Of a stretch of 32,000 nt of DNA, positions 185 through 27,309 are shown piece by piece. The stretch spans positions 1,410,001 to 1,442,000 of the forward strand of contig NZ_CP034549.1 of NCBI RefSeq assembly GCF_003966335.1, in the 5' to 3' direction. Source of the DNA: Nonlabens ponticola. Its GTDB lineage: Bacteria; Bacteroidota; Bacteroidia; Flavobacteriales; Flavobacteriaceae. The notes beneath the pieces are model-generated. The model searched no databases. It had not been told where the DNA came from and saw nothing but the letters and a program-made list of their open reading frames with translations. A program made the position numbers and the translations under genes. Each line of letters starts with the position of its first letter. Positions within the stretch are counted from its first letter, which is position 1.

Positions 185-290
185 GGTACAAAACGACATA
201 CAACACTGCACCCTAAAATAAACCGAACGATAAAGAGTTATATAACGTGGGATCGTGTGGATTTTAATAGGCTTTTTCTTAACTAAATTT

Positions 291-298
291 TATATTTA
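291..298 (+). promoter_or_regulatory. Candidate -7-like box TATATTTA upstream of wza
   Basis: It matches TAnnTTTG at 7 of 8 positions and ends 22 nt before ATG 321. The same 11-mer TATATTTACCG recurs at 27281. Confidence 0.25.
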
Positions 299-320
299 CC
301 GCTTACACCTCAAGGAAACT

Positions 321-1118
321 ATGCGTAAAGCTAGCTTACTACTATGGATAGCAATGATGTTGCTCGCGGCATCCTGCGTTCCTACCAATAAAATCACCTA
401 TTTACAGGAGTCAAAATCACAAGTCGTGGACAGTTTGAGCTATGTGCGCAAATTGCCGGCGCCTTACCGATTGCAGGTAGGCGATGTGCTCACGATCAAC
501 ATACGCACGGCGGTGGACGAAGAGAGTATCGCACCCATGTTTAGTATCGCGGGCGGCGCCACGGCCGATGACGGATCTGGCAATCCTTATTACACGGGTT
601 ACAATGTGGATACTCGAGGCGAGATACGCATGCCAGAGCTGGGCAAGATTAAGGTGCTGGGTCTCACGACAGATGAGGTGCGCATGAAACTGGAAAACAA
701 GATCAATAGCGAATATCTAAAAGAGGTCGCACAACTTTATATAACTGTAAAACTGGCTGGACTGCGCTATACCATGGTAGGTGAGGTGAGTGGTACCGGG
801 CAAAAGGTCATCTTTAGAGATCAGGTAAACGTGATTGAGGCCATTGCAGATGGTGGTGGCGTGCCGGTAACTGGCGACCTGACAAAGGTCAAGATCGTAC
901 GCAGTTATCCAGATGGTGTGCGCACGCACATCGTGGATGTTACAGATCTTGATATCGTGTACTCGCCATACTATTATATACAGCCCAATGACATGATTGT
1001 GGTAGATCCATTACCACAAAAAGCGCTGGGAACAGGTACCACTGGATTGAGTAGTTTTACCACTGTTTTATCCATCTTAACGGCGTTGACCACGGCAGTT
1101 TTACTTATTACTAGATAA
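321..1118 (+). CDS. wza: Wza-like polysaccharide export outer-membrane lipoprotein
   Basis: The track ORF is 255..1118 (GTG). I prefer the ATG at 321, which gives MRKASLLLWIAMMLLAASC, a lipoprotein-type signal peptide with Cys. It has a Poly_export-like motif (PAPYRLQVGDVLTINI), SLBB-like segments and a hydrophobic C-terminal helix as in Wza. Confidence 0.85.
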   Translation: MRKASLLLWIAMMLLAASCVPTNKITYLQESKSQVVDSLSYVRKLPAPYRLQVGDVLTINIRTAVDEESIAPMFSIAGGATADDGSGNPYYTGYNVDTRGEIRMPELGKIKVLGLTTDEVRMKLENKINSEYLKEVAQLYITVKLAGLRYTMVGEVSGTGQKVIFRDQVNVIEAIADGGGVPVTGDLTKVKIVRSYPDGVRTHIVDVTDLDIVYSPYYYIQPNDMIVVDPLPQKALGTGTTGLSSFTTVLSILTALTTAVLLITR

Positions 1119-1123
1119 AGCAG

Positions 1124-3598
1124 ATGGAAGAAGATAAAGAGGTAAACGCGCTTTCAGGCATATTTGATATCAAGCAATTTTTCCGCAAATTGCTCAAGTT
1201 GTGGTGGTTGCTGTTATTATGTCTCGCGATAGGCTTTTCCTATGCGTATTATAAGAATCAATTTATACAAACCTATTATGACGCTAGTTCTTTGATTTCT
1301 ATCAAAGACAATACAAACCCGCTATTCACTTCAAACCAAAGCCTTACTTTTAATTGGGGTGGCACTACTGACAAGGTGACTACCATTATTACTCAATTCA
1401 AGTCTCGTTCTCATGCAGAGCAGGTTGTTGATGATCTGCAATATTATGTGGAGTACATCAAGGAAGGCGATTATTATAATGTAGATGCCTATAAACAAAC
1501 GCCATTTTTTGTTTATGTAGATACCAGTCAGGCTCAATTGTATGGTAAGGAGCTGCGCATCACGGTGCTGGATCAGGATACCTTTGAGCTTTCCACTACA
1601 TTTACAGATGCCACAGCACCTGGATATGATTATGGTGGTAAAGAAAAGGTGACGCTCAAGGTTCCTGTAGGTGAGTGGAGCGAGCAGTTCAAATTTGGCG
1701 ATCCAGTGGCTCTAGACTTTTTGCACATTGACGTACAGCGTCGTGAGGAAACCATACCTGTAGGTGGTGAGTGGCTCATCAAATTTTCGGACTATTGGGC
1801 AACGGTTAATACTTACAAGGCTATAAGTGTAAGACCAACAGATGATGGTAGTTCTATTTTAAAATTGACCCTATCTGGTAGAAACAAGCAACGTCTTATA
1901 GATTATATCAATAGGAGTAGTGAAGTATTAGTACGTCAAGAATTAGAGCGAAAGAATAAATTTGCCGTGAGTACTATTATTTATATTGATAGTAGTCTAG
2001 CTTCAGAGGCTGATAGGCTTAAAAAATCAGAAAATGCTCTGGAAAATTTTAGAGGTAATAGTCAGCTAATCGATGCTAGTACTCAAAGCACCGATTTCAA
2101 CAATAAGTTGACTGATTATGAAATCCAGAAAAGAGATCTTAATAATAGGCTTAACTATCTTAACAATCTAGAGAGCTATCTGCGCAGCAAGACAGACTAT
2201 ACTAATATTCAAGCACCTAGTACGGTAGGTATATCCAGCGGTAGCATTTCACAATATGTAGGCCAGTTGGTACAATTATCTGCAGAGCGTAAGCGCAGGG
2301 AATTTAGCATGCGAGAGGACGCACCTATTTTTCAGGATCTTGATAGACGTATTGATGCAGTCAAGGATGTACTTTATGAGAATATCGAGAGTAATAAGGA
2401 TTTACTGCAAGATGAATTACAGAGTCTGAGTCGTGAGATCAACAGACTGGAATCACAGATACGTAGATTGCCTAAAGAGCAGCAGGAATTATTGAAAATT
2501 CAAAGACAAGTTGATATTACCCAACAAAGTTTTGATCTATTTAAGGCAAAACGTGCTGAAGCAGAATTAGTCAAAGCAGCAAACGTGTCTGATATTTATA
2601 TCATCGATGAAGCTAAGGATACTGGTAGTGGTGGAACTTCACGTGATGGTACCATAAATTATCTTATAGCTTTACTGATAGGTGTGACCATACCCATTAC
2701 CGTAGCTTTCGTTTTTACCATGTTGGATAATTTTATCCACTCACCTAAGGATCTAGAAAAGATCTCGCCAGTGCCATTAATAGGTGTTATAGGACGGATA
2801 GACCATCCTAATAATCTCGTGGCTTATGAAAAACCTAGATCTGCCGTGGCAGAGGCTTTCCGCGGGCTACGATCCAGCTTGCATTTTATGTACTCCACGC
2901 CTGCAATTCAAGGTACACGCACTATCATGGTCACGAGTAGCGTGAGTGGTGAAGGGAAGACATTTACTAGTATTAATCTGGCGACCATCTTTGCCATAAG
3001 TGGTAAGCGCACCGTGCTGGTAGGTCTCGATTTGCGCAAGCCTAAAATCTTTGATGATTTTAATGTTAAGAACAAGGTAGGTGTTTCTAATTTTCTAGTA
3101 AATGATGCCAGTATTGACGAGATTACCATGTCCACAGAAATTGAGAATCTTGACGTGATTTTGTCTGGACCTACACCGCCCAATCCCAGTGAGTTGATCA
3201 TGTCAGACAATATGGTGACCATGATTGAAAAGTTGAAGGAGCGTTATGATTATGTAATTCTTGACACGCCACCGGTAGGCCTGGTGGCAGACGCCATGGA
3301 AATTGCCCATTATGCAGATGCCACGCTTTATGTCGTGCGTCAAGGCTATACGCGCAAGGGTATGCTGGATATCGTCAATGAAAAGTATGTACGTAAAGAA
3401 TTTAAGAATGTGAGCTTGTTATTCAATTTCTTTAAGGATCAAGCCAGCTACGGTTATGGTTACGGTTACGGCTATGGATACGGTTATGGAGCTTACGGTA
3501 ATGGCTATCATGAGCAATATAAGAGTAAAAATAAGGCAGTACGTTTATTGCATAGATTAAGAAAGATTGTACCGCTTTCGCGAAAGCGTAATTCCTAA
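1124..3598 (+). CDS. wzc: Wzc-like chain-length determinant / bacterial tyrosine (BY) autokinase
   Basis: 824 aa with two TM segments flanking a long coiled-coil region. The C-terminal P-loop kinase has Walker A SSVSGEGKTF, Walker A' LVGLDLRKP and Walker B YVILDTPPVG, followed by a Tyr-rich tail. Confidence 0.9.
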   Translation: MEEDKEVNALSGIFDIKQFFRKLLKLWWLLLLCLAIGFSYAYYKNQFIQTYYDASSLISIKDNTNPLFTSNQSLTFNWGGTTDKVTTIITQFKSRSHAEQVVDDLQYYVEYIKEGDYYNVDAYKQTPFFVYVDTSQAQLYGKELRITVLDQDTFELSTTFTDATAPGYDYGGKEKVTLKVPVGEWSEQFKFGDPVALDFLHIDVQRREETIPVGGEWLIKFSDYWATVNTYKAISVRPTDDGSSILKLTLSGRNKQRLIDYINRSSEVLVRQELERKNKFAVSTIIYIDSSLASEADRLKKSENALENFRGNSQLIDASTQSTDFNNKLTDYEIQKRDLNNRLNYLNNLESYLRSKTDYTNIQAPSTVGISSGSISQYVGQLVQLSAERKRREFSMREDAPIFQDLDRRIDAVKDVLYENIESNKDLLQDELQSLSREINRLESQIRRLPKEQQELLKIQRQVDITQQSFDLFKAKRAEAELVKAANVSDIYIIDEAKDTGSGGTSRDGTINYLIALLIGVTIPITVAFVFTMLDNFIHSPKDLEKISPVPLIGVIGRIDHPNNLVAYEKPRSAVAEAFRGLRSSLHFMYSTPAIQGTRTIMVTSSVSGEGKTFTSINLATIFAISGKRTVLVGLDLRKPKIFDDFNVKNKVGVSNFLVNDASIDEITMSTEIENLDVILSGPTPPNPSELIMSDNMVTMIEKLKERYDYVILDTPPVGLVADAMEIAHYADATLYVVRQGYTRKGMLDIVNEKYVRKEFKNVSLLFNFFKDQASYGYGYGYGYGYGYGAYGNGYHEQYKSKNKAVRLLHRLRKIVPLSRKRNS
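3449..3508 (+). repeat. Imperfect hexanucleotide (TAY GGN) tandem repeat encoding the (YG)7-AYGNGY tail of Wzc
   Basis: Read directly: tac ggt tat ggt tac ggt tac ggc tat gga tac ggt tat gga gct tac ggt aat ggc tat. It is in frame with the ORF starting at 1124. Confidence 0.9.
3574..3587. repeat. Iterated palindrome copy 2, exact
   Basis: ttgtacc[core]gtaatt. It lies in the last 10 codons of wzc and is read as PLSRKR. Confidence 0.98.
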
Positions 3599-3603
3599 CA
3601 GCT

Positions 3604-4470
3604 ATGAAACAAGAAGAATGGCTGTATGAGATCAAGCCTAAAACTGCGCTTATACGCCTGAATTTTCAGGAGATATGGCGCTACCGTGACCTATTGATCC
3701 TGTTTGTAAAGCGCGACATAATTACTGTTTACAAGCAAACTATATTAGGACCTTTGTGGTATTTGATCCAGCCACTTTTTACCAGTGTGATTTTTACGTT
3801 GGTATTCAATGGTTTTGGTAATATCGATACGGGTGGCGTGAATCCCTTTCTATTCAATCTCGCTGGTATAACCATCTGGAATTATTTTAGGGATTGTTTG
3901 AATGGTACTAGTAACACCTTTGTGCAAAACGCTGGTATCTTTGGTAAGGTATATTTTCCGCGCGTGATTGTTCCTATGAGCGTGACCGTATCCAACGTTT
4001 TTAAGCTAGGGATACAGGTACTTATTTTTGTAGTGTTCTATATTTATTTCGCTTTTAAAGGTGGTGCAGGATCACCTAATGAGGCACTCGTATTATTTCC
4101 AGTGTACGTAGTTGTGATGGCACTCATAGGACTAGGGGCAGGCATGATCATAAGTAGTGCAACAACGAAATATAGAGACCTTACAGTTTTGGTGGGTTTT
4201 GGCGTGCAACTGTTGATGTACATTAGCGCCGTACCTTACTCTTTACAAGAGATCCAGGCATCAGACAAGGAATGGGTGCAAAAAGCCTTGCCCATTATAG
4301 AATGGAACCCACTGACACAGGTGATAGAAGGATTTAGATACATGACCATAGGTGTAGGATCTTTCGATATGGGCATGTTGGTTTATACCTGCGGGATAGG
4401 CGTTGTTGTTTTCTTATTGGGTTTGATAGTGTTTAATAGAACAGAGCGTTCTTTCATTGATACGGTTTAA
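3604..4470 (+). CDS. wzm: ABC-2 type polysaccharide/O-antigen exporter permease (Wzm-like)
   Basis: 288 aa with about 6 hydrophobic helices. The N-terminal motif (RYRDLLILFVKRDIITVYKQTILGPLWYLIQPL) is typical of the ABC-2/Wzm family, and the gene lies directly upstream of the ATPase. Confidence 0.85.
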   Translation: MKQEEWLYEIKPKTALIRLNFQEIWRYRDLLILFVKRDIITVYKQTILGPLWYLIQPLFTSVIFTLVFNGFGNIDTGGVNPFLFNLAGITIWNYFRDCLNGTSNTFVQNAGIFGKVYFPRVIVPMSVTVSNVFKLGIQVLIFVVFYIYFAFKGGAGSPNEALVLFPVYVVVMALIGLGAGMIISSATTKYRDLTVLVGFGVQLLMYISAVPYSLQEIQASDKEWVQKALPIIEWNPLTQVIEGFRYMTIGVGSFDMGMLVYTCGIGVVVFLLGLIVFNRTERSFIDTV

Positions 4471-4472
4471 GG

Positions 4473-5747
4473 ATGAGCGATATAATTCTCAAAGCAGAAA
4501 ATATAAGCAAACAGTACCGACTAGGTCTTATCGGTACAGGTACTCTGTCTCACGATTTGAATCGATGGTGGCATCTTATACGCGGTAAGGAAGATCCTTA
4601 TTTAAAGGTAGGTGCGGTCAATAAGCGCTCAGAAAAAGCAAGTCAAGAATACGTTTGGGCCTTAAAGGACATCAATTTTGAAGTTAAAAAGGGCGAGGTT
4701 CTAGGCATCATAGGTAAGAACGGTGCTGGCAAATCTACCTTACTCAAAATTCTTTCCCGAGTGACAAGCCCTACTACTGGCAGCATAAAAACCAAAGGCC
4801 GTATAGCAAGTTTATTAGAGGTAGGAACTGGTTTTCACCCAGAATTGACAGGTCGTGAAAACATTTATTTGAACGGTGCTATCCTAGGAATGAATAAAGC
4901 AGAAATTTCAACAAAAATAGATGAAATCGTTGCCTTCTCAGGCTGTGAAATGTACATAGATACGCCGACTAAGCGTTACAGTAGCGGTATGACCGTCAGA
5001 TTGGCCTTTGCGGTTGCGGCGTTTCTTGAACCAGACATACTAGTTGTAGATGAGGTTTTAGCAGTAGGTGATGCAGAGTTTCAAAAGAAGGCGATCGGTA
5101 AAATGCAGGATATTTCTAGCGGTGATGGACGTACCGTATTATTTGTAAGCCACAATATGGCTAGCGTTCAAAGTCTATGTACTAGAGGCATGATTCTTGA
5201 AAATGGATATGTATCCTTCTCTGGAAATATAGAAGAGTGTGTAGATAAGTATATCAATTCTTCAAGTCAAACGTTCTCTAGGGTAGATCTTGCTAGTAGA
5301 GATGGAATAGAAGTGTTAGATGTGTATATCAAAGATTTTCAACTTTTAAATCAGGAATCAAAGCCTGTGGAAACGGTGACGATTTCACAACCTGTAGGTT
5401 TTCAATTTGTGATTCCATCAAAACGAGAGATTGACATTACATCTCGCATTACAATCTTTGACTCATTTGATCAACGTCTTTTGGTATTTGACTCAGACCA
5501 TAGTAATGATCGATTTTATCTCAAACCAGGCGAGAATGTTGTTGAAGCAAGCTTACCAGCAGGTTTAGAACTTAAACCAGGTAATTACTATATAAACATT
5601 TCTATAAGGCATACTAACGAGTATCTAGATAGCTACATTAGGGTTTTGGAATTTGAAATTCAAGAAGAAGACTATTTTAATTCAAAAAAGCCTATTTCAG
5701 GAAATCTACCATTAGTGCTCAAAAAGAGCAACTGGAAATTATCTTAA
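4473..5747 (+). CDS. wzt: ABC polysaccharide exporter ATPase (Wzt-like) with ~170-aa C-terminal beta-rich extension (Wzt_C-type glycan-binding domain)
   Basis: Walker A GKNGAGKST, signature YSSGMTVRLAFA, Walker B ILVVDEVLAVGD, H-loop VSHN. The 424-aa length leaves an extra C-terminal domain (FSRVDLASRDGIEVLDVY...NYYINISI). Confidence 0.85.
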   Translation: MSDIILKAENISKQYRLGLIGTGTLSHDLNRWWHLIRGKEDPYLKVGAVNKRSEKASQEYVWALKDINFEVKKGEVLGIIGKNGAGKSTLLKILSRVTSPTTGSIKTKGRIASLLEVGTGFHPELTGRENIYLNGAILGMNKAEISTKIDEIVAFSGCEMYIDTPTKRYSSGMTVRLAFAVAAFLEPDILVVDEVLAVGDAEFQKKAIGKMQDISSGDGRTVLFVSHNMASVQSLCTRGMILENGYVSFSGNIEECVDKYINSSSQTFSRVDLASRDGIEVLDVYIKDFQLLNQESKPVETVTISQPVGFQFVIPSKREIDITSRITIFDSFDQRLLVFDSDHSNDRFYLKPGENVVEASLPAGLELKPGNYYINISIRHTNEYLDSYIRVLEFEIQEEDYFNSKKPISGNLPLVLKKSNWKLS

Positions 5748-5774
5748 GCTTACAACTAATAATTTCTTTACAAT

Positions 5775-6572
5775 TTGGATTTGGATAAGGAATACGAACT
5801 GCTTAGCAATAATACTGTTACTCACAACGGTAAAGAATACAGCTGCAGGACATTTAGTTTAGGTGATGTGATTTATAAAAAGGGAACCAATCCTATTTGC
5901 TTTAATGAAAATAGGTTTTTAAAAAAACTATCAAATTGTAAAAATTTCCCCAATGTTATAAATTTTGAGCAAGGCATTGAAGAATCTAGCATTACAATAA
6001 ACTTTGTCAAAGGGCAGCCTCTAGAAGATGAAATCAAGGGCAGCCATTATTTATCACATGCTCAAATTTGCCAAATTTTAGGCGGTTGCCTAGATATATT
6101 AATGCAGCTCGCACGGTATCAAATTATCCATAGAGATATCAGACCAGACAATATTATAATATCAAAAAATAAAGAACAATACATTCCTGTTCTCATCGAT
6201 TTTGGTTGGGGTAAATATGTACAAGAGCAAGATGTAATAACACCATCTTATCTGGGTGATATGCAGCGATTTCCTGGTACGCTTTTTAATGATAGCTATT
6301 CAATGGGATATTGTTTGATACCACTTAAAAGAACTGAGGCGTTGACTGAGCTCGTAAATAAATTCATGATGGTTGATCCAATTACGGATAAAAATTTTAA
6401 TCATGTCACACTGGTATTGAATGATCTAAAACAGGATCTTAAACATTATGAATCTAAAAAGATACAGGAGCAGTTCTATCTATGGTTTGAGTTTTTGAAA
6501 AAGCGCATTTCAGAGTCAAGAATAGGAGCAGCTTACAGGAAATCAATCACGAAAGAAGTCATTCATGATTAA
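5775..6572 (+). CDS. Small eukaryotic-like (Hanks-fold) kinase, possible glycan/sugar kinase
   Basis: TTG start. Catalytic loop HRDIRPDN at nt 6129-6152, DFG motif (IDFGWG) at nt 6198-6206, and a VIYKK beta3-lysine candidate. There is no clear Gly-rich loop, and at 265 aa it consists of a kinase domain only. Confidence 0.7.
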   Translation: MDLDKEYELLSNNTVTHNGKEYSCRTFSLGDVIYKKGTNPICFNENRFLKKLSNCKNFPNVINFEQGIEESSITINFVKGQPLEDEIKGSHYLSHAQICQILGGCLDILMQLARYQIIHRDIRPDNIIISKNKEQYIPVLIDFGWGKYVQEQDVITPSYLGDMQRFPGTLFNDSYSMGYCLIPLKRTEALTELVNKFMMVDPITDKNFNHVTLVLNDLKQDLKHYESKKIQEQFYLWFEFLKKRISESRIGAAYRKSITKEVIHD

Positions 6573-7500
6573 AGAAGATACTAGTGAGAAAATGGAGCAT
6601 GCGCTTGCGATCGTAATACCCTACTACAAAAAAGATTTTTTCAATGAATGTTTAAATTCTTTAAAAAATCAAACAAATAAAGATTTTAATCTGTACGTTG
6701 GAGATGATGCATCACCAGATGATCCTATTGAAGTCCTAAAACAATTTAAAGACGATCTAGATGTTAAGTATGTGCGTTTTGATAATAATCTAGGATCGAT
6801 TTCTTTGACTTCACAATGGATGCGTTGTCTAACCATGACATTAGATGAGCCATGGATAATGATATTGTGTGATGATGATTTACTATCACCAACTGTGGTA
6901 GATCAGTTTTATTTCCATAGACAACAAATAGAGAAGCATAATATTCAGGTAGTAAAATATGCTACTCAAGTAATAGATGGTAAAGGAGAACCCATCAGTA
7001 AAGTATATAAGCATCCTAGAATACAGCCTTATTCGAGAGTATTTGAAGAGCGTTTTTTTAAGGATGGACGCAGTTCTTTATCAGAGCATATGTTTACTCG
7101 TGGAGCTTATGAAAAACACGGTTTTAGAGACGTACCACTAGCTTGGCATGCAGATGATTATGCCTGGATGGACTTTTCTGAGTTTGGAGATATCTATAGT
7201 ATTAACGATGCGCTGGTGTTTTTCAGAATGTCAGATCAAAATATTTCTAGGGCTGATTATGAGCAAATCACAAAATGGACTGAGACATTTAAGTATTTCA
7301 ACTTTGTTCTAAAGCATAAGCGAGATTTTCTTCAAAAGGATCAGATCATTAAAGTAATCGATTATCTGGAATGGATGACTTATCAGTATGACATGAATAA
7401 GAAGGATCTAATTAACGCTATATTTTGGCAAACCTTGAGATATAAGGGTGGGATCAATCTTGCTAAATTTGTGCGCAGACTATATATAAACCGCTCATGA
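6565..7500 (+). CDS. GT-A fold (GT2-like) glycosyltransferase, paralog of 9385..10323
   Basis: LAIVIPYYKKDFFNECLNSLKNQTNKDFNLYVGDDASPDD plus a DDD motif (ILCDDDLL). It overlaps the upstream stop by 8 nt; an alternative ATG lies at 6592. Confidence 0.75.
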   Translation: MIKEDTSEKMEHALAIVIPYYKKDFFNECLNSLKNQTNKDFNLYVGDDASPDDPIEVLKQFKDDLDVKYVRFDNNLGSISLTSQWMRCLTMTLDEPWIMILCDDDLLSPTVVDQFYFHRQQIEKHNIQVVKYATQVIDGKGEPISKVYKHPRIQPYSRVFEERFFKDGRSSLSEHMFTRGAYEKHGFRDVPLAWHADDYAWMDFSEFGDIYSINDALVFFRMSDQNISRADYEQITKWTETFKYFNFVLKHKRDFLQKDQIIKVIDYLEWMTYQYDMNKKDLINAIFWQTLRYKGGINLAKFVRRLYINRS

Positions 7501-8453
7501 ATAAAAATAAATTAGTCTCCATTCTAATACCTATCTACAATCGTGAACACCTTATTGAACAAACACTTCAATCAATTTCTATTCAAACGTATAAAAACTT
7601 TGAATGTATCATCGTGGATGACGGCTCTACTGACGATACTGTTGGTGTGATTTCTGCTTTCGCGAAAGCTGATCCAAGATTTAAAATTTTCATAAGATCA
7701 AAGGATCGAACTAAAGGAGCAAATTCATGTAGGAATATCGCTTTTGAGAAGTCACGAGGGGAAATTATAAAGTGGTTTGATAGTGATGACATAATGCTTG
7801 AAGATCATTTGCAGCTAGCTACTCATGCACTTGAAGACGAGCAAATAGATTTTGTAGTATCAGAAAGTGAAATTTTTGTTGATGATAAAAAAAAAGGTGC
7901 CGCTCCTTTTCATTCCTCTAAAGACGCCTCATTGATAAGCCCGGAAAACTATGCAAAGTTCGTCGTTGGTTGGATTACAAATGACTTTACTTGTAAAAGA
8001 AACACCATTCTTAATACGCGTTTTAATGAAAGATTTAGAACTGCTGGAGATGAGTATAACTTCTTCATTAAATACTTGCATAACACAACGGCAGGTGCCT
8101 TCATAGATAGAGTGACAACTCTTTATAGGCAACATGACATATCGTTAAGTAGCGATGTTGATGTTGATGAAGTAAAATACCACACTAATATTTGTGAGAT
8201 AAAATACTTGTGTAGTAACGACATGATTGCTCTGAGTAATTATGAATTAGCAAATTGGTTTATGGACGGTTACATAAATCATGCACATATTTTAATGAGC
8301 AAATCCACAAGTATTCCTTTTCTACGATCGGCCTTTAAGGATCTAGAAATAATCAAAACGAGTACACATGCCAATTATTTAAGATTGGCTCAACTTTCGT
8401 TTAGAGTTTTTGGAAAGGGTTACTATTTCATTAGAAAAGCCCGCGGCAACTAA
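7497..8453 (+). CDS. Family 2 glycosyltransferase
   Basis: Classical GT2 N-terminus VSILIPIYNREHLIEQTLQSISIQTYKNFECIIVDDGSTDDT and DSDD motif. It has a 4-nt ATGA overlap with the upstream gene. Confidence 0.9.
   Translation: MNKNKLVSILIPIYNREHLIEQTLQSISIQTYKNFECIIVDDGSTDDTVGVISAFAKADPRFKIFIRSKDRTKGANSCRNIAFEKSRGEIIKWFDSDDIMLEDHLQLATHALEDEQIDFVVSESEIFVDDKKKGAAPFHSSKDASLISPENYAKFVVGWITNDFTCKRNTILNTRFNERFRTAGDEYNFFIKYLHNTTAGAFIDRVTTLYRQHDISLSSDVDVDEVKYHTNICEIKYLCSNDMIALSNYELANWFMDGYINHAHILMSKSTSIPFLRSAFKDLEIIKTSTHANYLRLAQLSFRVFGKGYYFIRKARGN
7656..7669. repeat. Iterated palindrome copy 3, exact
   Basis: gatttct[core]tgatcc. It lies in the GT2 gene 7497..8453 and is read as AFAKA. Confidence 0.98.
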
Positions 8454-8497
8454 TAAATTATAACTTGCAGATTTATTTCGCGATTTTCGTTTAATTC

Positions 8498-9385
8498 ATG
8501 TCAGATCTAATTTCCATTATAATCCCTAGCTACAATCAATCTTCCTACATGGAGGAAACACTTTCTAGTGTTCAAAATCAAACGTTTAAAAATTGGGAAT
8601 GTTTGATAATTGATGATGGTAGTACTGACAATACGCGAGAAGTTGCAGCAAGATGGACAGAAAAGGATTCAAGATTCAAGTATTATTTTAAAAAAAATGG
8701 CGGTGTAAGTTCTGCAAGAAATGTAGGATTGAATAACGCTTTGGGAGACTTCATACAGTTTTTAGATTGCGATGATATCTTGAAAAAGACAAAATTAGAG
8801 GTATCTATAAATGCATTTAATTCTAATCACCTAGTCACTAATATCGTATTGACCGATTTTAAAATGCTCAATCAAGGTAACATAGTCGGTGTTCCATATT
8901 GCAATTTGAAAAAAGAGTATTTCAATTTTGAAAGCGTACTTTTTGGCTGGAATTATGATTTTTCTATTCCCATTCATTGTGGACTGTTCAGAAAAGAGGT
9001 ATTTGAAAAACTACGTTTCTCAGTTGAATTATCAGCTCAAGAAGATTGGCTTTTATGGGTCAAAATATTTAGAGATTACGGCGATGGTTATTTTTTAAAT
9101 GAAGCATTGGTTTTATATCGCAAGAATGTTGACGGTAGAACGCAATCAGGTAGCTATATTCCGGATCAAATGGCGGTCTTAAAACTTCTCAAGAAGGAAT
9201 TAAATCATCAGTTGTACGAGAAATTGCTATTTGTTCTGATTGAGCGTTACCTAAGAATCATAGAAGACAGAACTTCGGCATTGAATGGTATAAAGTCAAC
9301 ACGCTCATATCAATTGGGGCGCAAATTGAGAAGAGCTTTCACTAGAATTGGTATCATCAAATATTTTGAAAATCTTCTGCCCTGA
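8498..9385 (+). CDS. Family 2 glycosyltransferase
   Basis: ISIIIPSYNQSSYMEETLSSVQNQTFKNWECLIIDDGSTDNT and a DCDD motif. Confidence 0.9.
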   Translation: MSDLISIIIPSYNQSSYMEETLSSVQNQTFKNWECLIIDDGSTDNTREVAARWTEKDSRFKYYFKKNGGVSSARNVGLNNALGDFIQFLDCDDILKKTKLEVSINAFNSNHLVTNIVLTDFKMLNQGNIVGVPYCNLKKEYFNFESVLFGWNYDFSIPIHCGLFRKEVFEKLRFSVELSAQEDWLLWVKIFRDYGDGYFLNEALVLYRKNVDGRTQSGSYIPDQMAVLKLLKKELNHQLYEKLLFVLIERYLRIIEDRTSALNGIKSTRSYQLGRKLRRAFTRIGIIKYFENLLP

Positions 9386-10323
9386 TGAATGATACTATGC
9401 TATCCATTATTATTCCTTATTATAAGATTGATTTCTTTGAAGACACCTTGAAATCATTATCGTTACAGACGGATAAGCGATTTAATGTTTTCATAGGTAA
9501 TGACGGAAGTCCTGATGATCCATCAGCTTTGATTGAAAAATATCAAAACCACTTTGACCTTGAATACCATAAGTTTGATGAAAACCTGGGTAAATACTCT
9601 TTGATAAAACAATGGGAACGATGTATTGATCTAGTTCCTGATACTACTTGGATTCAAATAATTGGAGATGATGATATTTTGGAGCCTACATGTGTAGAAG
9701 CTTTTTATGAAAATCTAGATGAAATTAATCGTTCAGGTAGTCAGGTGGTTAGATATGCTACAAGAGTTATAGATGTTAGCAGTGATTTTTTAACTGACTC
9801 TTTTACTCATCCAAAAACTGAGACGTCGATTAATTTTTTTATTCGTAAGCTTAATGGTTTGACTCGTAGTTCTCTACCAGAATATGTTTTTAAATTTGAA
9901 TCTTTCAAGGCCGTTGGCCTACGCGATTTTCCGCTAGCTTGGCATAGTGATGATATTTTGGTTTTAGAGGTTTCAGATTTTGGCAACATCTATACTATTA
10001 ATGAGGCTAATGTGCTTTTCAGAAGTAGCGGTATCAACATAAGTTCAAAACAGGATAATAATGGGCCTAAGGCCTATGCTTCGTTTGCCTATTACAATCA
10101 TCTAATCTCCTTGTATTCTAATCGATTTGATAAGAATCAATTGAATTTATTATTGGACAATTGGGAAAGAGCCTTCTACAATATCAAAAGCGTTCCTAAA
10201 TTTTGGATACAGTTCTCCTCTTATTATTTATCACATGGTTTAGTTTTAAGATATACCAATTTTATTGGCAGATCTTTAAAGAGAACCATTCTCCACAAAT
10301 TGAAAAATCGCAGTAAAAAATAG
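9385..10323 (+). CDS. GT-A fold (GT2-like) glycosyltransferase, paralog of 6565..7500
   Basis: LSIIIPYYKIDFFEDTLKSLSLQTDKRFNVFIGNDGSPDD and IIGDDDIL. It is collinear with the 6565 protein along its whole length (e.g. PLAWHADDY vs PLAWHSDDI). It has a TGATG overlap with the upstream gene. Confidence 0.75.
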   Translation: MNDTMLSIIIPYYKIDFFEDTLKSLSLQTDKRFNVFIGNDGSPDDPSALIEKYQNHFDLEYHKFDENLGKYSLIKQWERCIDLVPDTTWIQIIGDDDILEPTCVEAFYENLDEINRSGSQVVRYATRVIDVSSDFLTDSFTHPKTETSINFFIRKLNGLTRSSLPEYVFKFESFKAVGLRDFPLAWHSDDILVLEVSDFGNIYTINEANVLFRSSGINISSKQDNNGPKAYASFAYYNHLISLYSNRFDKNQLNLLLDNWERAFYNIKSVPKFWIQFSSYYLSHGLVLRYTNFIGRSLKRTILHKLKNRSKK

Positions 10324-10327
10324 ATTT

Positions 10328-11545
10328 ATGGTCAAGAATGTTTTAGTGATTGCTCAGGATCTAAGGATTTCTGGAACCAGCGAGGGAATAGTATCACGAT
10401 CCTTCATAAAGAGATTAAAAATGATCTGGCCTTCGACTCGTGTAGATGTTTTATACACCAGACTTCATGGTGTGAGCGATGAGAAAATAGAATTATTAAA
10501 TGCAGATAATGTTCAAATAGAGAACGTCAATCGAGATATTCCATCTTATATAAAATGGCTCAATAAGTTTTATTGGAGGTCATTCCATGAATCATTGAAC
10601 GATGCACACATAGTGAACAAAATATCTAATATTTATAAGTCTTTAGACTTTTCAAAATATGATGTTATTTTCCTGCGCAGCTCTGGACAAGATTATGAGA
10701 ATATCCTTGCCGCAGTAGAATTTGATTTTTTAAAGAAGTCAATCGTCAATTTTCATGACCCGTATCCTGCATTCTGGGATCCTGGAAGTTCTAGCAATCT
10801 TGATATGTTAGAATTAAAGAAAGTAAAAAGAATGCATGAAGTAGTTGAAAAAGCAGGGATCAGTATATCACCTTCTCAATTGCTTTCCCAGGATATCTCT
10901 GTTTTATACAATCAATCCAAAAAACCACTGTCAACAATACCGCATCAATTTGAACCAACTGCCTTTGCCTTTAGTAAGTTGGATGCAGAATATAAGAAGA
11001 ATAAAAAGTACTCAATAACTTATCATGGAACTTTGCAGTTGGGTCGGGACATTGAAATTATCATAGATGCCTTTAAAGATCTATTGACGAATACTTTGAT
11101 TGAAAATAATTTTGAAATGATTTTACGGCTTAAAAGCGTTCACTATCATAAACTTGCGAGCAAATATTCTGGCATTGAGAACATACGGATATTGAAAGGT
11201 GCAAAATCGTCAATTTGTTTAAGTGAACAGATTTACAAGTCTGATGTAGCACTTCTTGTTGAAAATAATCTAGAGTACAGCAATATTTTACCAGGAAAGC
11301 TGCCAGTGCTCGCAAGTTCTAATGGAACGGTGTTCTCTGTCTGTCCAGATAAGAGTGAATCAAGACGTATAATTGAGGATGATAGGTTAGTAGCAAATAG
11401 CAAGAACAAAAAAGAAATTCAAGAGAAGCTTTCAGACCTACTATTGAGAATTATTAATAATGAAAAGGTAAAAAATCCTTATGCAGATTATTTTAGTCTT
11501 CAATCCTTTGAAAATATACTCAACAACTTAAGCTTAGTTTTTTGA
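10328..11545 (+). CDS. Divergent GT-B-fold glycosyltransferase-like protein (function unassigned)
   Basis: 405-aa ORF in operon context. The C-terminal half (ITYHGTLQLGRDIEII...LPGKLPVLASSNGTVF) resembles a GT1/GT4 C-domain, but I see no clear EX7E motif. Confidence 0.5.
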   Translation: MVKNVLVIAQDLRISGTSEGIVSRSFIKRLKMIWPSTRVDVLYTRLHGVSDEKIELLNADNVQIENVNRDIPSYIKWLNKFYWRSFHESLNDAHIVNKISNIYKSLDFSKYDVIFLRSSGQDYENILAAVEFDFLKKSIVNFHDPYPAFWDPGSSSNLDMLELKKVKRMHEVVEKAGISISPSQLLSQDISVLYNQSKKPLSTIPHQFEPTAFAFSKLDAEYKKNKKYSITYHGTLQLGRDIEIIIDAFKDLLTNTLIENNFEMILRLKSVHYHKLASKYSGIENIRILKGAKSSICLSEQIYKSDVALLVENNLEYSNILPGKLPVLASSNGTVFSVCPDKSESRRIIEDDRLVANSKNKKEIQEKLSDLLLRIINNEKVKNPYADYFSLQSFENILNNLSLVF

Positions 11546-12561
11546 GAGTCGGTTATAACCCAAATAGGAATCAACAACTATCAGACGCGGTATACACACA
11601 TTTAGTCGTGGTGCCCGTTTATATTCCACATTTAAGAGATTACTATAAGGACAGTTTGAGAATTTTAGAAAGCTGTCTAAAATCTTTGATAAATTCTGTT
11701 CATTCAAATACGCTAATATCGGTTGTTGATAACGGGAGTTGTCAAGAAGTAAATTCTTTCCTAAGCGAGATGTTGAAAGAGCGCATCCTAGATGAGCTTA
11801 TTACAACCGTAAATATTGGAAAATTGAATGCCATACTTAAAGGAGTGTCTGGTCATAAAGTTGACCTGATAACCATTTCTGACGCTGATATTTTATTTGT
11901 GAAAGGTTGGCAAAAAGAAACAGCAGATGTTTTCTTAAACATTAAAAAGGCGGCGGTAGTGGGATTGATCCCGCAATTCAAGATGTATTCGAGTTATAGC
12001 TCCAATTTAATATTTGACTATTTATTTTCAAGCAAATTGAAATTTAAACCAGTAGATAATCCCAGTGCCATGAGGGAATTTTATCGCAGTATCGGTTGGA
12101 AAGACAATTACAACAAAAATTATCTGAAATATCACTTAACCATTACCCATAATGATGTAGTGGCGGTCGTCGGATCTGGTCATGCGGTTGCTACCTATAA
12201 ATCGGAAATATTCACCAAGATAAATCATGAGGTATCTACATTTAAACTTGGTGGAGGCTCAGAATCTCGTATTCTAGACTCTTCGGCGTTAAAACTCGAT
12301 GGTTACCGACTTACAACAGCGCAAAACTTTGCATACCATATGGGGAACATTTTTGAGCCATGGATGGAAAGAACAAGTTTTGAAGGACGACCCAAAGTTT
12401 CTAACGATCATCTTTTAAGTTTCAAAAATAAACTTGAAAAAAGGCCGGTGAGATTTTATTTAAAAAGTAAAATGTTTAAAAGACTTTTCAAAGTTTCCAT
12501 TTTTACTCGGCTCTTTCTCAGGACAAAGGGATTAACTTCAGATATTGCACGTAATTATTAA
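11542..12561 (+). CDS. GT-A fold glycosyltransferase-like protein
   Basis: TTG start overlapping the upstream stop by 4 nt. VVVPVYIPHL...ISVVDNGSCQE and ITISDADILF (a DxD-like motif). Confidence 0.6.
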   Translation: MRVGYNPNRNQQLSDAVYTHLVVVPVYIPHLRDYYKDSLRILESCLKSLINSVHSNTLISVVDNGSCQEVNSFLSEMLKERILDELITTVNIGKLNAILKGVSGHKVDLITISDADILFVKGWQKETADVFLNIKKAAVVGLIPQFKMYSSYSSNLIFDYLFSSKLKFKPVDNPSAMREFYRSIGWKDNYNKNYLKYHLTITHNDVVAVVGSGHAVATYKSEIFTKINHEVSTFKLGGGSESRILDSSALKLDGYRLTTAQNFAYHMGNIFEPWMERTSFEGRPKVSNDHLLSFKNKLEKRPVRFYLKSKMFKRLFKVSIFTRLFLRTKGLTSDIARNY

Positions 12562-12565
12562 GTAT

Positions 12566-13483
12566 ATGAATTACATTTTTTCATTGCTAATATGCACTAA
12601 GGATAGGTTGGACCAGCTTTCAAGAACACTAAGTATAATGTCAGCACAAATATTATCAGAAGAGCTTGATGTTGTAATTATAGACGATGGATCCTCTGAT
12701 GGCACATATGAATTTGTTAAAAACAATTACCCAGCAATTAGAGCTTTTAGAAACCAACGAAGTCTTGGACTTATGGCTTGTAGAAATTTTTTACTAGAAA
12801 ATGCAAAGGGTAAATATTCTATCTCACTAGATGATGATGCGCACATACTCACTCCAGAGTACACTAAAAAATTGCTATCCTTTTTTAACGATAATCCAAA
12901 GTGCGCTGTTGCTGCACTACGAATATTTTGGTCTGTAGATGAGCCATCTAGAATAGACACCTTAGATAAACCTCAACAGGTTCAAAGTTTTGTGGGTTGT
13001 GGTCATGTTTGGAACATGCACGCGTGGAAGGAGATCGATCCGTATCCAGAATGGTTCGAGTTCTATGGTGAAGAAGATTATGCATCTTACCAATTATTTA
13101 AAAATGGGTGGAAGGTTCTATACTACCCAGCAATTTTGGTACAACATAGGGTGGACTTAAAACAACGTAAGAAGGATCGGGAAAACTATTATTCGCGATT
13201 AGGCAAAGGGATCAGGGCAGGTTGGTTCTTATATGCAATGTTTTATCCTTTAAAACCAGCTATTCGAATGATATCATATAGTCTCTGGATTAAGTTAAAA
13301 AATGACGTATTCAAAGGTGATTTAAGAATGCTATTGATTTTGATAAGTGTAGTTAAGGATTTCATATTCAATTGTCATCGATTTATCAATTCAAACAGGT
13401 TGACCATGAAAGAATACAAAGAATTTAAAAAGATTGATAAGGCTAAGATATATTGGACACCAAAAGAAAAACAATCACGGTAA
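12566..13483 (+). CDS. Family 2 glycosyltransferase
   Basis: The track ORF starts at TTG 12545. I prefer ATG 12566 (MNYIFSLLICTKDRLDQL...VVIIDDGSSDGT), with DxD motif SLDDDAHIL. Confidence 0.85.
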   Translation: MNYIFSLLICTKDRLDQLSRTLSIMSAQILSEELDVVIIDDGSSDGTYEFVKNNYPAIRAFRNQRSLGLMACRNFLLENAKGKYSISLDDDAHILTPEYTKKLLSFFNDNPKCAVAALRIFWSVDEPSRIDTLDKPQQVQSFVGCGHVWNMHAWKEIDPYPEWFEFYGEEDYASYQLFKNGWKVLYYPAILVQHRVDLKQRKKDRENYYSRLGKGIRAGWFLYAMFYPLKPAIRMISYSLWIKLKNDVFKGDLRMLLILISVVKDFIFNCHRFINSNRLTMKEYKEFKKIDKAKIYWTPKEKQSR

Positions 13484-13565
13484 TCCAGCCAGAGGCGGCT
13501 CAAAGCAATTGGCCAGAAAAATTGATGCTATGTTAAATGATCTTAATGCGCTGGAACATCTTATA

Positions 13566-13579
13566 GCTTACGCGAAAGC
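13566..13579. repeat. Iterated palindrome copy 4, one mismatch (GCTTACGCGAAAGC)
   Basis: cttata[core]taaaat. It lies in the 13484..13719 spacer, with T>A at 13570. Confidence 0.8.
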
Positions 13580-13719
13580 TAAAATCCAGCATAATGACAT
13601 TATGATAATAAATACGATTGATACTATTAATTTTACTGCATGTAATATTATGAAATGAGTAATGATATTAATATATATCTTGCCCTAGATATGGCATTGT
13701 ATTTTCTTCAAAAAGGCCC

Positions 13720-14514
13720 ATGTTCATGAGTGATGTATCTATTTTATCAACGGTCATCAATTTTGAGTTGTATAAGAAGACCTCACCACTGCACCCAACT
13801 GCGATAAATAGATTTGTCATCGATGGTCGCAATGGTATGCATGGATTATCCAGTCTGCGGTATGCCATCAGAAAATTAAAATCCCAAAAGGTTGACTGGC
13901 TACTCATGTGCGATGAAGATGTGATATTTCAGGATGCCAGCGCTATCGAGAAGATCAAAAATCACATGCTGGCAAACGATCAGGTAGTCGCAGGTGTACG
14001 CGACGGTGGTATGATATCGCACCGTGGTTATAATCCTTATGTTCCCAACACTTTTTTGTGCCTCATTCACTGGAGTAGAGTCATGGAATCATTCTCTATG
14101 AAAGAAATGCTACAGCAACAGTTCATTAAAGAGGCAGAGTTTGCAGATAAACTTCATCAGTTACCTTTCAAATTTGATCGCAAGAGTGTTTTTGAACCCT
14201 ATTACAGATTCTTCTTCTATTTGCGCAGAAAAGGTTTCAAGATGCTATTCCTAGATTCACAGATGGCAACAGACGGTATTTCAAATCATATCTCATGGGA
14301 CGATAAGATAATGGCAACACATACCTGGTATGCAAGATCCTATGGTGTCAATGAGAAGCATACAAAACGCATTAATGGCATTTTAAAGGATGCCACTTTT
14401 AATAATCTTCCTATTGATAATAGTGAGGTGATTTTATGGAAGGACCCAACCTATTTTCTCACGTCCAAGGTCAAAAAAATAGCACGCCGTATACATAACA
14501 GGTTTTCAAACTAA
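13720..14514 (+). CDS. Hypothetical GT-A-like protein with CDEDV (DxD-type) motif
   Basis: 264-aa ORF after a 236-nt gap. LLMCDEDVIFQD resembles a nucleotide-sugar transferase DxD motif. I do not recognise the family. Confidence 0.45.
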   Translation: MFMSDVSILSTVINFELYKKTSPLHPTAINRFVIDGRNGMHGLSSLRYAIRKLKSQKVDWLLMCDEDVIFQDASAIEKIKNHMLANDQVVAGVRDGGMISHRGYNPYVPNTFLCLIHWSRVMESFSMKEMLQQQFIKEAEFADKLHQLPFKFDRKSVFEPYYRFFFYLRRKGFKMLFLDSQMATDGISNHISWDDKIMATHTWYARSYGVNEKHTKRINGILKDATFNNLPIDNSEVILWKDPTYFLTSKVKKIARRIHNRFSN

Positions 14515-22154: not shown

Positions 22155-22844
22155 TCACCTATTTCTCACATCACTCTCGATCACACCATCACGCAATCTG
22201 ATAACTCTGTGGGCATGTTCTGCAATGTCTTCCTCGTGAGTTACTAGAATTACAGTATTACCATCTGCATGGATTTTATCAAAAAGTGCCATGATCTCGA
22301 CGCCAGTTTTGGAATCAAGGTTACCAGTAGGCTCATCTGCCAGAATAATGGATGGATTGTTGACTAATGCTCGACCTACTGCCACGCGTTGACGTTGACC
22401 ACCAGAAAGCTGGTTGGGTTTGTGATCCATACGATCTGCCAGGCCAACGCTGGTAAGTACATCGCTGGCGCGATCCATGCGATCCCTTTTGGATTTGCCG
22501 GCATAGATCATGGGTAATGCCACATTGTCAAGGGCTGTTGTACGTGGTAATAAGTTAAACGTCTGGAATACAAAACCAATCTCGGTGTTGCGTATATCGG
22601 CTAGCTGGTCATCGCTCAAACTGGAAACATCAGTACCATTTAATCGATACGTCCCAGAAGTGGCAGTATCCAGACAACCCAATAGATTCATAAATGTCGA
22701 TTTACCAGAACCTGATGGTCCCATAAAAGCTACATAATCGCCACGTTTGATGTCAAGATCAATGCCTTTAAGTACTTTGACCTCTTCCTGGCCTAGCTTG
22801 AAATTACGTACGATATTGCGTACCTCGATCACATTTTCACTCAT
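22155..22844 (-). CDS. MacB/LolD/FtsE-type ABC transporter ATP-binding protein (no adjacent permease)
   Basis: Walker [10 protein letters not shown], signature [15 protein letters not shown], Walker [14 protein letters not shown]-loop LVTHE. Confidence 0.9.
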
Positions 22845-22895
22845 GGGATGACTTATTGTTATGGATGTTCATAGGACGTTTAAAGATACGATCTG

Positions 22896-23720: not shown

Positions 23721-23753
23721 AGAAGAAGGAATGATTGTATTTTGCCATCACGC

Positions 23754-24815: not shown

Positions 24816-24821
24816 ACTGGC

Positions 24822-26231: not shown

Positions 26232-26265
26232 GACAGATTCATCGTCACGTTCAATTCTACAGCCC

Positions 26266-27273: not shown

Positions 27274-27280
27274 GAAACGA

Positions 27281-27288
27281 TATATTTA
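27281..27288 (+). promoter_or_regulatory. Candidate -7-like box TATATTTA upstream of the initiating sugar transferase
   Basis: It has the same 11-mer TATATTTACCG as at 291..301 and ends 21 nt before ATG 27310. Confidence 0.25.
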
Positions 27289-27309
27289 CCGTTGACAGAT
27301 TCCCCAAGT

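Follow-up and report, generated by a model that had tools for sequence, protein, structure and literature searches.

A stand-alone Hanks-fold kinase encoded directly after wzt in Nonlabens ponticola, a candidate chain-capping glycan kinase

We propose that a 265-aa open reading frame directly downstream of wzt in Nonlabens ponticola encodes a sugar (glycan) kinase of an ABC-transporter-dependent polysaccharide pathway, which would cap the chain end and would not act as a protein kinase. Judging from sequence comparison, we put the probability of this reading at roughly 0.6. A role on glycans is likely because the relatives of the kinase are all built into enzymes of sugar-chain assembly, and because the kinase stands beside a Wzt of the cap-reading type. 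In the following, the window denotes the whole stretch of DNA that was analysed, 32,000 nucleotides of contig NZ_CP034549.1 (positions 1,410,001 to 1,442,000). Its relevant features are given in Table 1.

Table 1 Features of the window. Coordinates are positions within the window; the last column gives the basis of each assignment.
Feature	Coordinates	Strand	Basis
Wza-like outer-membrane export protein	255-1118	+	Pfam Poly_export 2.3e-15
Wzc-like tyrosine autokinase co-polymerase	1124-3598	+	Pfam Wzz, GNVR, AAA_31; NCBIfam eps_fam tyrosine autokinase 2e-48
Wzm, ABC-2 permease of glycan exporter	3604-4470	+	Pfam ABC2_membrane 1.1e-15
Wzt, 424 aa	4473-5747	+	ABC ATPase and 162-residue C-terminal domain
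Wzt nucleotide-binding domain, residues 1-262	4473-5258	+	Pfam ABC_tran 1.3e-22
Low-G+C cassette (Wzt binding domain, kinase, first GT block)	5250-14514	+	Composition profiles
Wzt C-terminal carbohydrate-binding domain, residues 263-424	5259-5747	+	Pfam Wzt_C, Foldseek
Stand-alone minimal Hanks-fold kinase, 265 aa	5775-6572	+	Pfam Pkinase 47.4 bits
First GT2 glycosyltransferase	6565-7500	+	Pfam Glycos_transf_2 2.1e-14
Methyltransferase	22896-23720	-	Methyltransf_24, 1.4e-12

The Wza-like and Wzc-like genes are directly upstream of wzm-wzt, in one operon. The kinase frame begins 28 nt downstream of wzt and its stop overlaps the first GT2 gene by 8 nt, so that co-translation is probable. Downstream of the kinase and up to position 22036, the same strand carries seven genes for GT2 and three for GT4 enzymes, and three more in which Pfam finds nothing. 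The genes with no Pfam match are 10328-11545, 13720-14514 and 14809-16167, two of which have no NCBIfam match either, and the locus holds at least 15 transferase-like genes. The G+C content is 0.40-0.44 upstream and about 0.42 in the ATPase part of wzt, and 0.32-0.36 from about position 5250. This drop sets in where the ATPase domain of wzt gives way to the binding domain, and continues through the kinase and the GT genes. Because the G+C content falls at the domain junction of wzt, we regard the binding domain, the kinase and the GT genes as one cassette.

The kinase was found in none of 36 congeneric genomes, which have retained Wza-, Wzc-, Wzm- and Wzt-like genes or, at minimum, Wzt, and Wzt is long enough to hold a binding domain in 34 of 38 congeneric genomes. 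Among 10 congeners, wzt is often followed by a gene whose product could make a cap (3 have a methyltransferase there, 2 have nonulosonic-acid or CMP-sugar genes). Since the kinase is also absent beside the 80 closest Wzt homologs, it does not follow the lineage of the Wzt ATPase domain.

Wzm is 64-67% identical to the best-matching Flavobacteriaceae Wzm, and the Wzt ATPase domain, in which the Pfam ABC_tran match covers residues 64-195, is 79-84% identical to other Flavobacteriaceae Wzt ATPase domains. The best solved relative of Wzt is the full-length Wzt of Aquifex, aligned over residues 55-381 (2e-63). A C-terminal binding-domain extension of Wzt had been described in a first-pass annotation of this DNA, and the description is borne out. 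Residues 284-398 score 40.5 bits with Pfam Wzt_C (PF14524, cut-off 30.4), and the AlphaFold model of residues 263-424 (pLDDT 83) folds like the solved Wzt domains: in Foldseek its top 17 PDB matches are all Wzt carbohydrate-binding domains (TM 0.64-0.70), from Aquifex (8dky/6o14), Raoultella O12 (5hno) and E. coli O9a (2r5o). The three solved binding domains all belong to transporters of capped glycans (PDB entry titles; PMC3482155), and the domain in the window is presumed to be the reader of a chain-end cap.

The kinase frame starts with TTG, at 5775 or at 5781, and an ATG start is absent. Its core comprises residues 1 to about 205 and is followed by a helical tail (208-264). The match to Pfam Pkinase (PF00069) is above the cut-off of 31.7 bits, and the catalytic residues are present: the beta3 lysine K35, the alphaC glutamate E45, H119-R120-D121, N126 and D142-F143-G144. 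In an alignment with 30 relatives no variation is seen at K35, at N126 or in the HRD and DFG triads, and E45 is nearly invariant. A glycine-rich GxGxxG loop was looked for in the kinase and is absent. The activation segment is short, DFGW(x11)TPxxLGD, with about 12 residues from DFG to TP and with LGD replacing APE. In the AlphaFold model (pLDDT 89, pTM 0.84) the C-lobe is reduced, the alphaF-alphaH stretch is shortened with no alphaG substrate-docking lobe recognised, and three helices occupy residues 208-264, where segment 228-245 is moderately amphipathic. The kinase-only frame with HRDIRPDN and DFG motifs and the short helical tail, both noticed in the first-pass annotation, can thus be confirmed, the frame being intact and the motifs conserved.

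For comparison, 91 related loci were gathered from genome and metagenome contigs. At every locus with a complete gene the kinase has one of two partners, either fused or adjacent to it: at 50 loci a methyltransferase domain, and at 33 loci a pair of uncharacterised domains that we call NX. Among 27 kinase-bearing proteins that were scanned, GT2 domains occur in 12, GT1/GT4 domains in 8 and TPR in 11. The family spans Bacteroidota, Actinomycetota, Verrucomicrobiota, Chloroflexota and other phyla. The window kinase is 32-38% identical to methyltransferase-kinase fusions such as P0004 (locus L001), those of L175, L199 and L206, and the 708-aa P0037, and has the motifs HRDIRPDN, PVLIDFGW and D.YS.G in common with them. 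Like the window kinase, the fusions are often found right after wzm-wzt; unlike it, they always carry an N-terminal SAM methyltransferase and often GT2, GT4 or TPR domains. A family gene directly follows wzm-wzt on the same strand at L001, L003, L010, L163, L175, L199 and L206. A Wzt-type ATPase lies within the fetched stretch at just 8 of the 55 family loci having at least 2.5 kb of upstream sequence, and the Wzt beside methyltransferase-kinase fusions is mostly devoid of a binding domain.

No further clear stand-alone kinase was found among the 91 related loci and the representative library, which agrees with the earlier view that the kinase-only form is undescribed. Short kinase-only proteins of the library, among them P0005, P0028 and P0034, did not qualify as confirmed stand-alone genes, most short matches being fusion fragments and the rest having no genomic context. 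Every other complete member of the family has a second catalytic domain, and for this reason the bare kinase may be incomplete or may need a partner. Such a partner in trans had been suggested in the methyltransferase on the minus strand of the window, a suggestion that we could not support: this gene lies on the strand opposite to the kinase operon, beside an orphan ABC ATPase, and its product is unrelated to the kinase-fused type (hhalign probability 0.3%). A search of the 2.87-Mb genome with the profile of the kinase-fused methyltransferase returned nothing convincing (best 1e-4).

The closest relatives of the window kinase are NX-kinases. It forms one clade with the kinases of two Flavobacteriaceae-type loci, L010 (a Gelidibacter MAG) and L163 (metagenome contig Ga0209715_1001927), with support 99/95, and both loci share the gene order of the window, namely wzm, wzt with a binding domain, and then the kinase. 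The same two loci give the best two matches to the Wzt binding domain of the window among about 220 loci. The binding domain of L163 is 40% identical to that of the window, and the binding domain of L010 scores 54.6 bits, where the runner-up among the 161 loci scored alongside reaches 31.8; the Wzt ATPase domain of L010 ranks just 31st against that of the window. The kinase clade travels with one Wzt binding-domain subtype, a link that rests on only two other loci. L163 also shares downstream GT genes with the window, and a homolog of the first GT2 directly follows its kinase (1.2e-61). The two NX-kinases are 622-630 aa long, with about 360 N-terminal residues more than the window kinase. The extra region contains conserved GGGHRIHATD and EHGDIDLL motifs and is probably two further enzymes; it has no match in the PDB by sequence and no more than weak NTP_transf_5 hints in Pfam (E 0.002-0.2), and it was found neither in the window nor in the whole genome. 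The branch of the window kinase is long, at 1.5-1.8 changes per site. We tried to root the tree on the Ser/Thr kinase of the genome itself and rejected the result, as this outgroup fell inside the methyltransferase clade on a long branch, and the direction of domain gain or loss therefore cannot be claimed.

Under the glycan-kinase reading, the downstream GT2 and GT4 enzymes would assemble the polymer on undecaprenyl diphosphate, on the cytoplasmic side of the membrane, and the amphipathic helical tail would keep the kinase near that membrane. The kinase would move the gamma-phosphate of ATP onto a hydroxyl of the non-reducing terminal sugar, and the terminal phosphate would block further extension, as it does for WbdD. 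We infer that this phosphate would stay unmodified and would itself be the cap, which the Wzt binding domain must bind before export by Wzm-Wzt. The chain length would then be set by the ratio of kinase to polymerase with no fixed ruler, since a coiled-coil ruler is not present.

The kinase might instead decorate internal or side-chain positions or an adaptor region, the true cap coming from another enzyme of the locus such as a GT2, one of the unassigned frames or the minus-strand methyltransferase. The wealth of transferase-like genes and the three frames with no Pfam match leave room for such an arrangement, and members of the kinase family are not always paired with a binding domain, as the Wzt beside the methyltransferase-kinase fusions illustrates. 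The heptose kinases of the LPS core, WaaP and WaaY, which are kinase-fold enzymes decorating internal sugars, provide a precedent. We nevertheless consider decoration unlikely, because the kinase holds the slot directly after wzt, as wbdD does, because a binding-domain subtype travels with the kinase clade, and because chain termination is the function of the characterised methyltransferase-kinase enzymes, WbdD (PMC3482155) and the N-terminal module of K. pneumoniae O7 ORF6 (PMC11231755).

It could also be argued that the gene encodes a true Hanks-type Ser/Thr protein kinase, which would regulate assembly or export by phosphorylating one of the proteins involved, for example Wzc, Wzt or a glycosyltransferase. 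Both by sequence and by fold, protein kinases come out on top (Chk2 with 9e-8; with the family profile, PknB-like kinases with 3e-18), and motifs characteristic of protein kinases are retained, namely HRD, DFG, the TP motif of the P+1 loop and DxYSxG. The similarity of the model to protein kinases in Foldseek is, however, just TM 0.41-0.53. An assignment to the APH/choline or Kdo/WaaP kinases, which had been raised as well, was not obtained, as the APH profile scores 19.1 bits, below its cut-off of 23.2, and the Kdo profile (PF06293) gives nothing at E <= 0.01. The first-pass annotation had held that assignment to the Ser/Thr kinases by HMM would speak against capping. This outcome is not diagnostic: the Pkinase match cannot refute the capping idea because WbdD of E. 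coli, whose action on sugars is proven, passes the same Pfam profile with 36.3 bits. The physical fusion of the family to methyltransferase and glycosyltransferase modules, the short activation segment without APE, the lack of FHA, PASTA and Ser/Thr phosphatase domains in Pfam scans of the window, and the absence of the gene from 36 congeners that retain the export genes or at least Wzt all argue against a protein kinase, and we give this explanation very little weight.

Least probable of the alternatives is that the gene is what remains of an NX-kinase gene after loss of the N-terminal 360 residues, without any further part in glycan assembly. Both sister proteins carry the NX pair, which was found nowhere in this genome, and the window branch is long. 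Yet the frame is intact, every catalytic residue has survived about 1.5-1.8 changes per site, the model is of high confidence and the gene is tightly packed between its neighbours.

In ABC-transporter-dependent glycan assembly a chemical cap couples chain length to export. To our knowledge, just a handful of caps and capping enzymes are known, namely methyl, methyl phosphate and Kdo. The glycan kinase proposed here may be the first phosphate-only terminator, with a bare-phosphate cap read directly by a dedicated subtype of Wzt binding domain, and the minimal member of a large unstudied WbdD-like family in which the phosphate is otherwise elaborated by a methyltransferase or by NX; this wider suggestion, drawn from the sequences, is a tentative one that we hold as somewhat doubtful. 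The NX pair would possibly represent a third kind of phosphate-based cap. If the suggestion is true, a kinase domain by itself can terminate chains with neither a methyltransferase nor a ruler, and WbdD, instead of being an oddity of enterobacteria and Xanthomonas, sits at the remote tip of a family of Hanks-fold glycan kinases that is widespread. The 265-aa kinase together with its binding domain, and likewise the NX-kinases, would also offer two simple experimental systems, which bear on how Wzt binding domains read phosphate-based caps and on the control of chain length where no coiled-coil ruler exists. In annotation work, a polysaccharide locus with a Pfam Pkinase match should not be taken to encode a signalling kinase on that ground.

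The system closest to the proposed one is WbdD of E. coli O9a and K. pneumoniae O3 (PDB 4AZS series), a methyltransferase-kinase-coiled-coil chain terminator (PMC3482155). The order wzm-wzt-wbdD of E. coli HS is the order of the window, and a Wzt_C domain is present on Wzt in both. The window kinase resembles WbdD in its eukaryotic-type kinase fold, short activation loop, lack of a functional alphaG and C-terminal helices (WbdD features from PMC3482155), and both have an unusual Arg-Pro in the catalytic loop (HRDIRPDN in the window, HDDVRPWN in WbdD) and the LIDFG block. The kinase family aligns with the WbdD kinase of E. coli over 117 columns (hhalign 96.5%, E 8e-10), the window kinase itself matches WbdD in BLASTP at 1e-6 (25% identity over 101 residues), and the family-fused methyltransferase aligns with that of WbdD (hhalign 90%, E 1.5e-6), so that both domains of the fusions match WbdD remotely and in identical order. 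WbdD falls with the clade of the window kinase in the tree, a placement that carries a long-branch warning. The family HMM, however, gives WbdD 34.9 bits against 55.3 bits for the genome's own ordinary Ser/Thr kinase, and in the PDB WbdD is among neither the top 60 matches by sequence nor the top 50 by fold. At 265 aa against 708 aa, the window kinase is without the methyltransferase, the long coiled-coil ruler and the WbdA-recruiting region of WbdD; just about 57 residues, forming three short helices, extend beyond its core, and neither a coiled-coil ruler nor a membrane- and WbdA-binding region was recognised in them. Judged by its architecture, and with weak sequence support, the window kinase is not a strict member of the WbdD family. 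Of the WbdD-like cap system put forward in the first-pass annotation, comparison thus upholds a glycan-acting kinase in the role and slot of WbdD and coupled to the Wzt binding domain, whereas strict membership fails on architecture. The proposed cap is a phosphate, in contrast to the methyl phosphate of WbdD, and for O9a chains phosphorylation alone is sufficient for termination (PMC3482155).

Two further terminators are relevant. Xanthomonas WxcB has the domain order of the methyltransferase-kinase fusions (PMC4878081), a likeness taken from its description alone. The N-terminal module of ORF6 of K. pneumoniae O7 is a methyltransferase-kinase that ends chains with methyl phosphate in another ABC-transporter-dependent pathway (PMC11231755). 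Its kinase domain is AmiN-like (aminoglycoside kinase) and unrecognisable by sequence (PMC11231755), whereas the window kinase is Hanks-type. O7 ORF6 shows that the kinases of chain terminators are diverse and modular.

The window is a polysaccharide locus of a flavobacterium whose genome consists of one 2.87-Mb contig (G+C 40.7%); all genes from 255 to 22036 lie on the plus strand. The kinase ORF starts 28 nt after wzt and overlaps the following GT2 gene by 8 nt. Wza/Wzc-type export genes, whose usual partners are Wzy-dependent capsules, here form a single operon with the Wzm/Wzt ABC exporter (255-5747). Further downstream, a minus-strand pair (an orphan MacB/LolD-like ABC ATPase of 229 aa and a Methyltransf_24 methyltransferase) divides the plus-strand genes; the methyltransferase gene shares its first 66 nt with the beginning of the divergent GT4 gene at 23655. 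A second block follows, and no Wzx flippase was recognised within the window.

Coordinates of the features discussed (window positions unless a locus or genome is named)
Feature	Location	Strand	Remark
wza-like	255-1118	+	
wzc-like tyrosine autokinase	1124-3598	+	
wzm	3604-4470	+	
wzt	4473-5747	+	
Kinase ORF	5775-6572	+	TTG start at 5775 or 5781
Gene run 3' of kinase	up to 22036	+	seven GT2, three GT4, three without Pfam match
452-aa ORF	14809-16167	+	no Pfam match; weak NCBIfam BFO_1060 glycosyltransferase (1.7e-9)
ABC ATPase and methyltransferase	22155-23720	-	
Methyltransferase	22896-23720	-	
Second block	23655-28701		Wzy_C-family protein, WbaP-like initiating transferase
Other host kinase	G000:C1:1771895-1773397	-	outside window, ~500 aa
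NX, metagenome contig Ga0209715_1001927	L163:6149-7252		
NX, Gelidibacter MAG	L010:6816-7943		
NX, other loci	L016, L038, L192, L195, L212, L193		
Methyltransferase-kinase paralogs, one metagenome contig	L177:7209-8786; L177:11540-13117		525 aa each

The arrangement reported in the first-pass annotation, a Wzt with a C-terminal binding domain followed by a stand-alone kinase, was confirmed. Wzt residues 284-398 pass Pfam Wzt_C (40.5 bits; cut-off 30.4), and residues 55-381 align to full-length Aquifex Wzt (2e-63). When residues 263-424 were folded from a nine-sequence alignment (pLDDT 83), Foldseek matches 1-17 in the PDB were all Wzt carbohydrate-binding domains (TM 0.64-0.70), from Aquifex (crystal with 3-O-methyl-mannose), Raoultella O12 (binder of a Kdo-capped glycan) and E. 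coli O9a. The modelled extension thus has the Wzt_C beta-sandwich fold that the first-pass annotation required.

The kinase passes Pfam Pkinase at 47.4 bits (cut-off 31.7), whereas APH stays under its Pfam cut-off and Kdo/WaaP gives no Pfam match. Its AlphaFold model (pLDDT 89, pTM 0.84) has an N-lobe of five strands that lacks a GxGxxG loop; the activation segment is short, the C-lobe is reduced, and of the three final helices (208-264) one is moderately amphipathic. It is possible, with lower probability than cap formation, that this is a protein kinase; the closest solved structures by sequence and by Foldseek are ordinary Ser/Thr kinases, e.g. Chk2, CaMKII and PknB-like. These nearest matches do not decide the substrate: E. 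coli WbdD, a proven mannose 3-kinase, passes Pfam Pkinase too (36.3 bits). The genome's sole other Hanks-type kinase carries canonical GxGxxG, HRDLKPEN and APE motifs, and three congeners (G010, G019 and G025) have weak kinase matches that may be its orthologs.

Neither a word-indexed search of 5.8 billion clusters nor an exhaustive search of 1.84 billion representatives found a close homolog. The former returned only two other proteins (36-38% identity), one of them a methyltransferase-kinase fusion. The latter gave 112 matches below 1e-10, the best of which are multi-domain proteins with ~250-400 residues preceding the kinase, in several cases a SAM methyltransferase by Pfam; one relative of 708 aa combines methyltransferase, kinase and coiled coil. 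We fetched 80 genome and 60 metagenome loci and annotated them by HMMs of three families, namely the kinase, the fused methyltransferase and a second N-terminal domain; 91 loci truly belong to the kinase family. A methyltransferase is fused or adjacent to the kinase in 50 of the 91 and NX in 33, while the other 8 are cut by a contig end or have a separate methyltransferase or NX ORF 5' of the kinase (2 extra rows are loci already counted in the methyltransferase class). Among 27 kinase-bearing proteins, Pfam recognised methyltransferase in 13, GT2 in 12, GT1/GT4 in 8 and TPR in 11. Judged from these architectures, a kinase joined to glycosyltransferases and methyltransferases belongs to glycan assembly and not to signalling. 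The paralogous methyltransferase-kinase genes of L177, ~2.8 kb apart, could point to a locus with two terminators.

NX, an uncharacterised domain pair of ~360 residues that precedes the kinase in those 33 loci, has two invariant motifs: GGGHRIHATD resembles the HGSD active site of nucleoside-diphosphate-kinase, and EHGDIDLL a Pol-beta-type nucleotidyltransferase. By sequence it has no match in the PDB, and its Pfam hints, NTP_transf_5 and NDK, are weak. NX may be the maker of a third type of phosphate-based glycan cap.

In all other complete family members the kinase comes with a second catalytic module, and there is none in the window. NX is absent from window and genome, and the genome has no WbdD-type methyltransferase. 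The methyltransferase next to the orphan ABC ATPase, earlier proposed as a possible partner in trans, is encoded on the opposite strand and shows no relationship to the kinase-fused methyltransferases (hhalign 0.3%), and was rejected as unsupported. A phosphate-only cap is the simplest reading and a plausible one, since phosphorylation by itself is enough to end O9a chains (PMC3482155). An unrelated partner enzyme is possible. Internal decoration of the glycan by the kinase is also possible, at a lower probability than capping. A decaying remnant is likewise less probable than capping; the catalytic set is complete (K35, E45, H119-R120-D121, N126, D142-F143-G144), and across 30 relatives it is invariant except for E45, which is nearly so.

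A Wzt-type ATPase lies inside the fetched stretch in a minority of loci, 8 of the 55 whose upstream sequence reaches 2.5 kb or more. In L001, L003, L010, L163, L175, L199 and L206 the kinase gene is directly 3' of wzm-wzt and has the same orientation. A maximum-likelihood tree from which WbdD and the outgroup were left out places the kinases of the window, L163 and L010 in a clade (support 99/95), and both loci share the window's order of wzm, wzt with binding domain, and kinase. Among all loci examined, they also give the top two matches to the window's Wzt binding domain: L163 with 40% identity (4e-35) and L010 with 54.6 bits, the next best having 31.8. Since the L010 ATPase domain ranks only 31st of 83, its binding-domain match is not explained by overall relatedness. 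Downstream, L163 and the window have in common a GT2 (1e-61), a GT4 (3e-97) and the 452-aa ORF, whose high conservation (1.6e-146) marks it as shared core of this glycan type.

Window G+C falls from ~0.42 to 0.32-0.36 at ~5250, the ATPase/binding-domain junction of wzt, and stays low through the kinase and first glycosyltransferase block to ~14.5 kb (5250-14514). Given this drop and low run, a conserved wza-wzc-wzm-wzt(ATPase) backbone seems to have received binding domain, kinase and transferases together as a single exchangeable cassette, and the composition suggests a recombination junction inside wzt exchanging serotype cassettes. The genus comparison agrees: the kinase is present in 0 of 36 congeneric genomes and at none of the 80 closest Wzt loci, and Wzt has ~404-462 residues in 34 of 38. 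Ten congeners differ in the gene that follows wzt: three have a methyltransferase, two a nonulosonic-acid synthase or CMP-sugar synthetase, and the others an MptE-like protein, acetyltransferase, GT1 or unknown. The slot varies by species (L231-L240), with a methyltransferase-pyruvyltransferase fusion, FkbM methyltransferase, NeuB/CMP-sugar synthetase fusion and cytidylyltransferase. Several of these could be cap makers, and the slot could be used to list candidate cap chemistries for the genus.

The whole case is computational. The WbdD-like cap system first proposed is supported in part: the kinase is probably a WbdD-like cap-forming glycan kinase coupled to a Wzt binding domain, but in the strict sense it does not belong to the WbdD family. 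The description that fits best is a new, minimal variant in a large uncharacterised Hanks-fold kinase family tied to glycan assembly. With wzm-wzt-wbdD of E. coli HS (O9) as reference, the relationship is distant: against the family HMM, WbdD reaches 34.9 bits and the ordinary Ser/Thr kinase of the host genome 55.3 bits. The window kinase alone matches WbdD by BLASTP at 1e-6 (25% identity, 101 residues). Between the family alignment and the WbdD kinase, hhalign gives a probability of 96.5% (E 8e-10) over 117 columns that extend from just after beta3 to beyond the DFG motif, and both have the unusual catalytic-loop Arg-Pro (HRDIRPDN; HDDVRPWN in WbdD) and the LIDFG block. The fused methyltransferase family matches the WbdD methyltransferase (hhalign 90%, E 1.5e-6), and one of its His residues aligns with WbdD H132, which is among the residues essential for phosphate methylation (PMC3482155). 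From both matches, the methyltransferase-kinase fusions are remote WbdD homologs: each of the two domains corresponds to its WbdD counterpart, and the domain order is the same.
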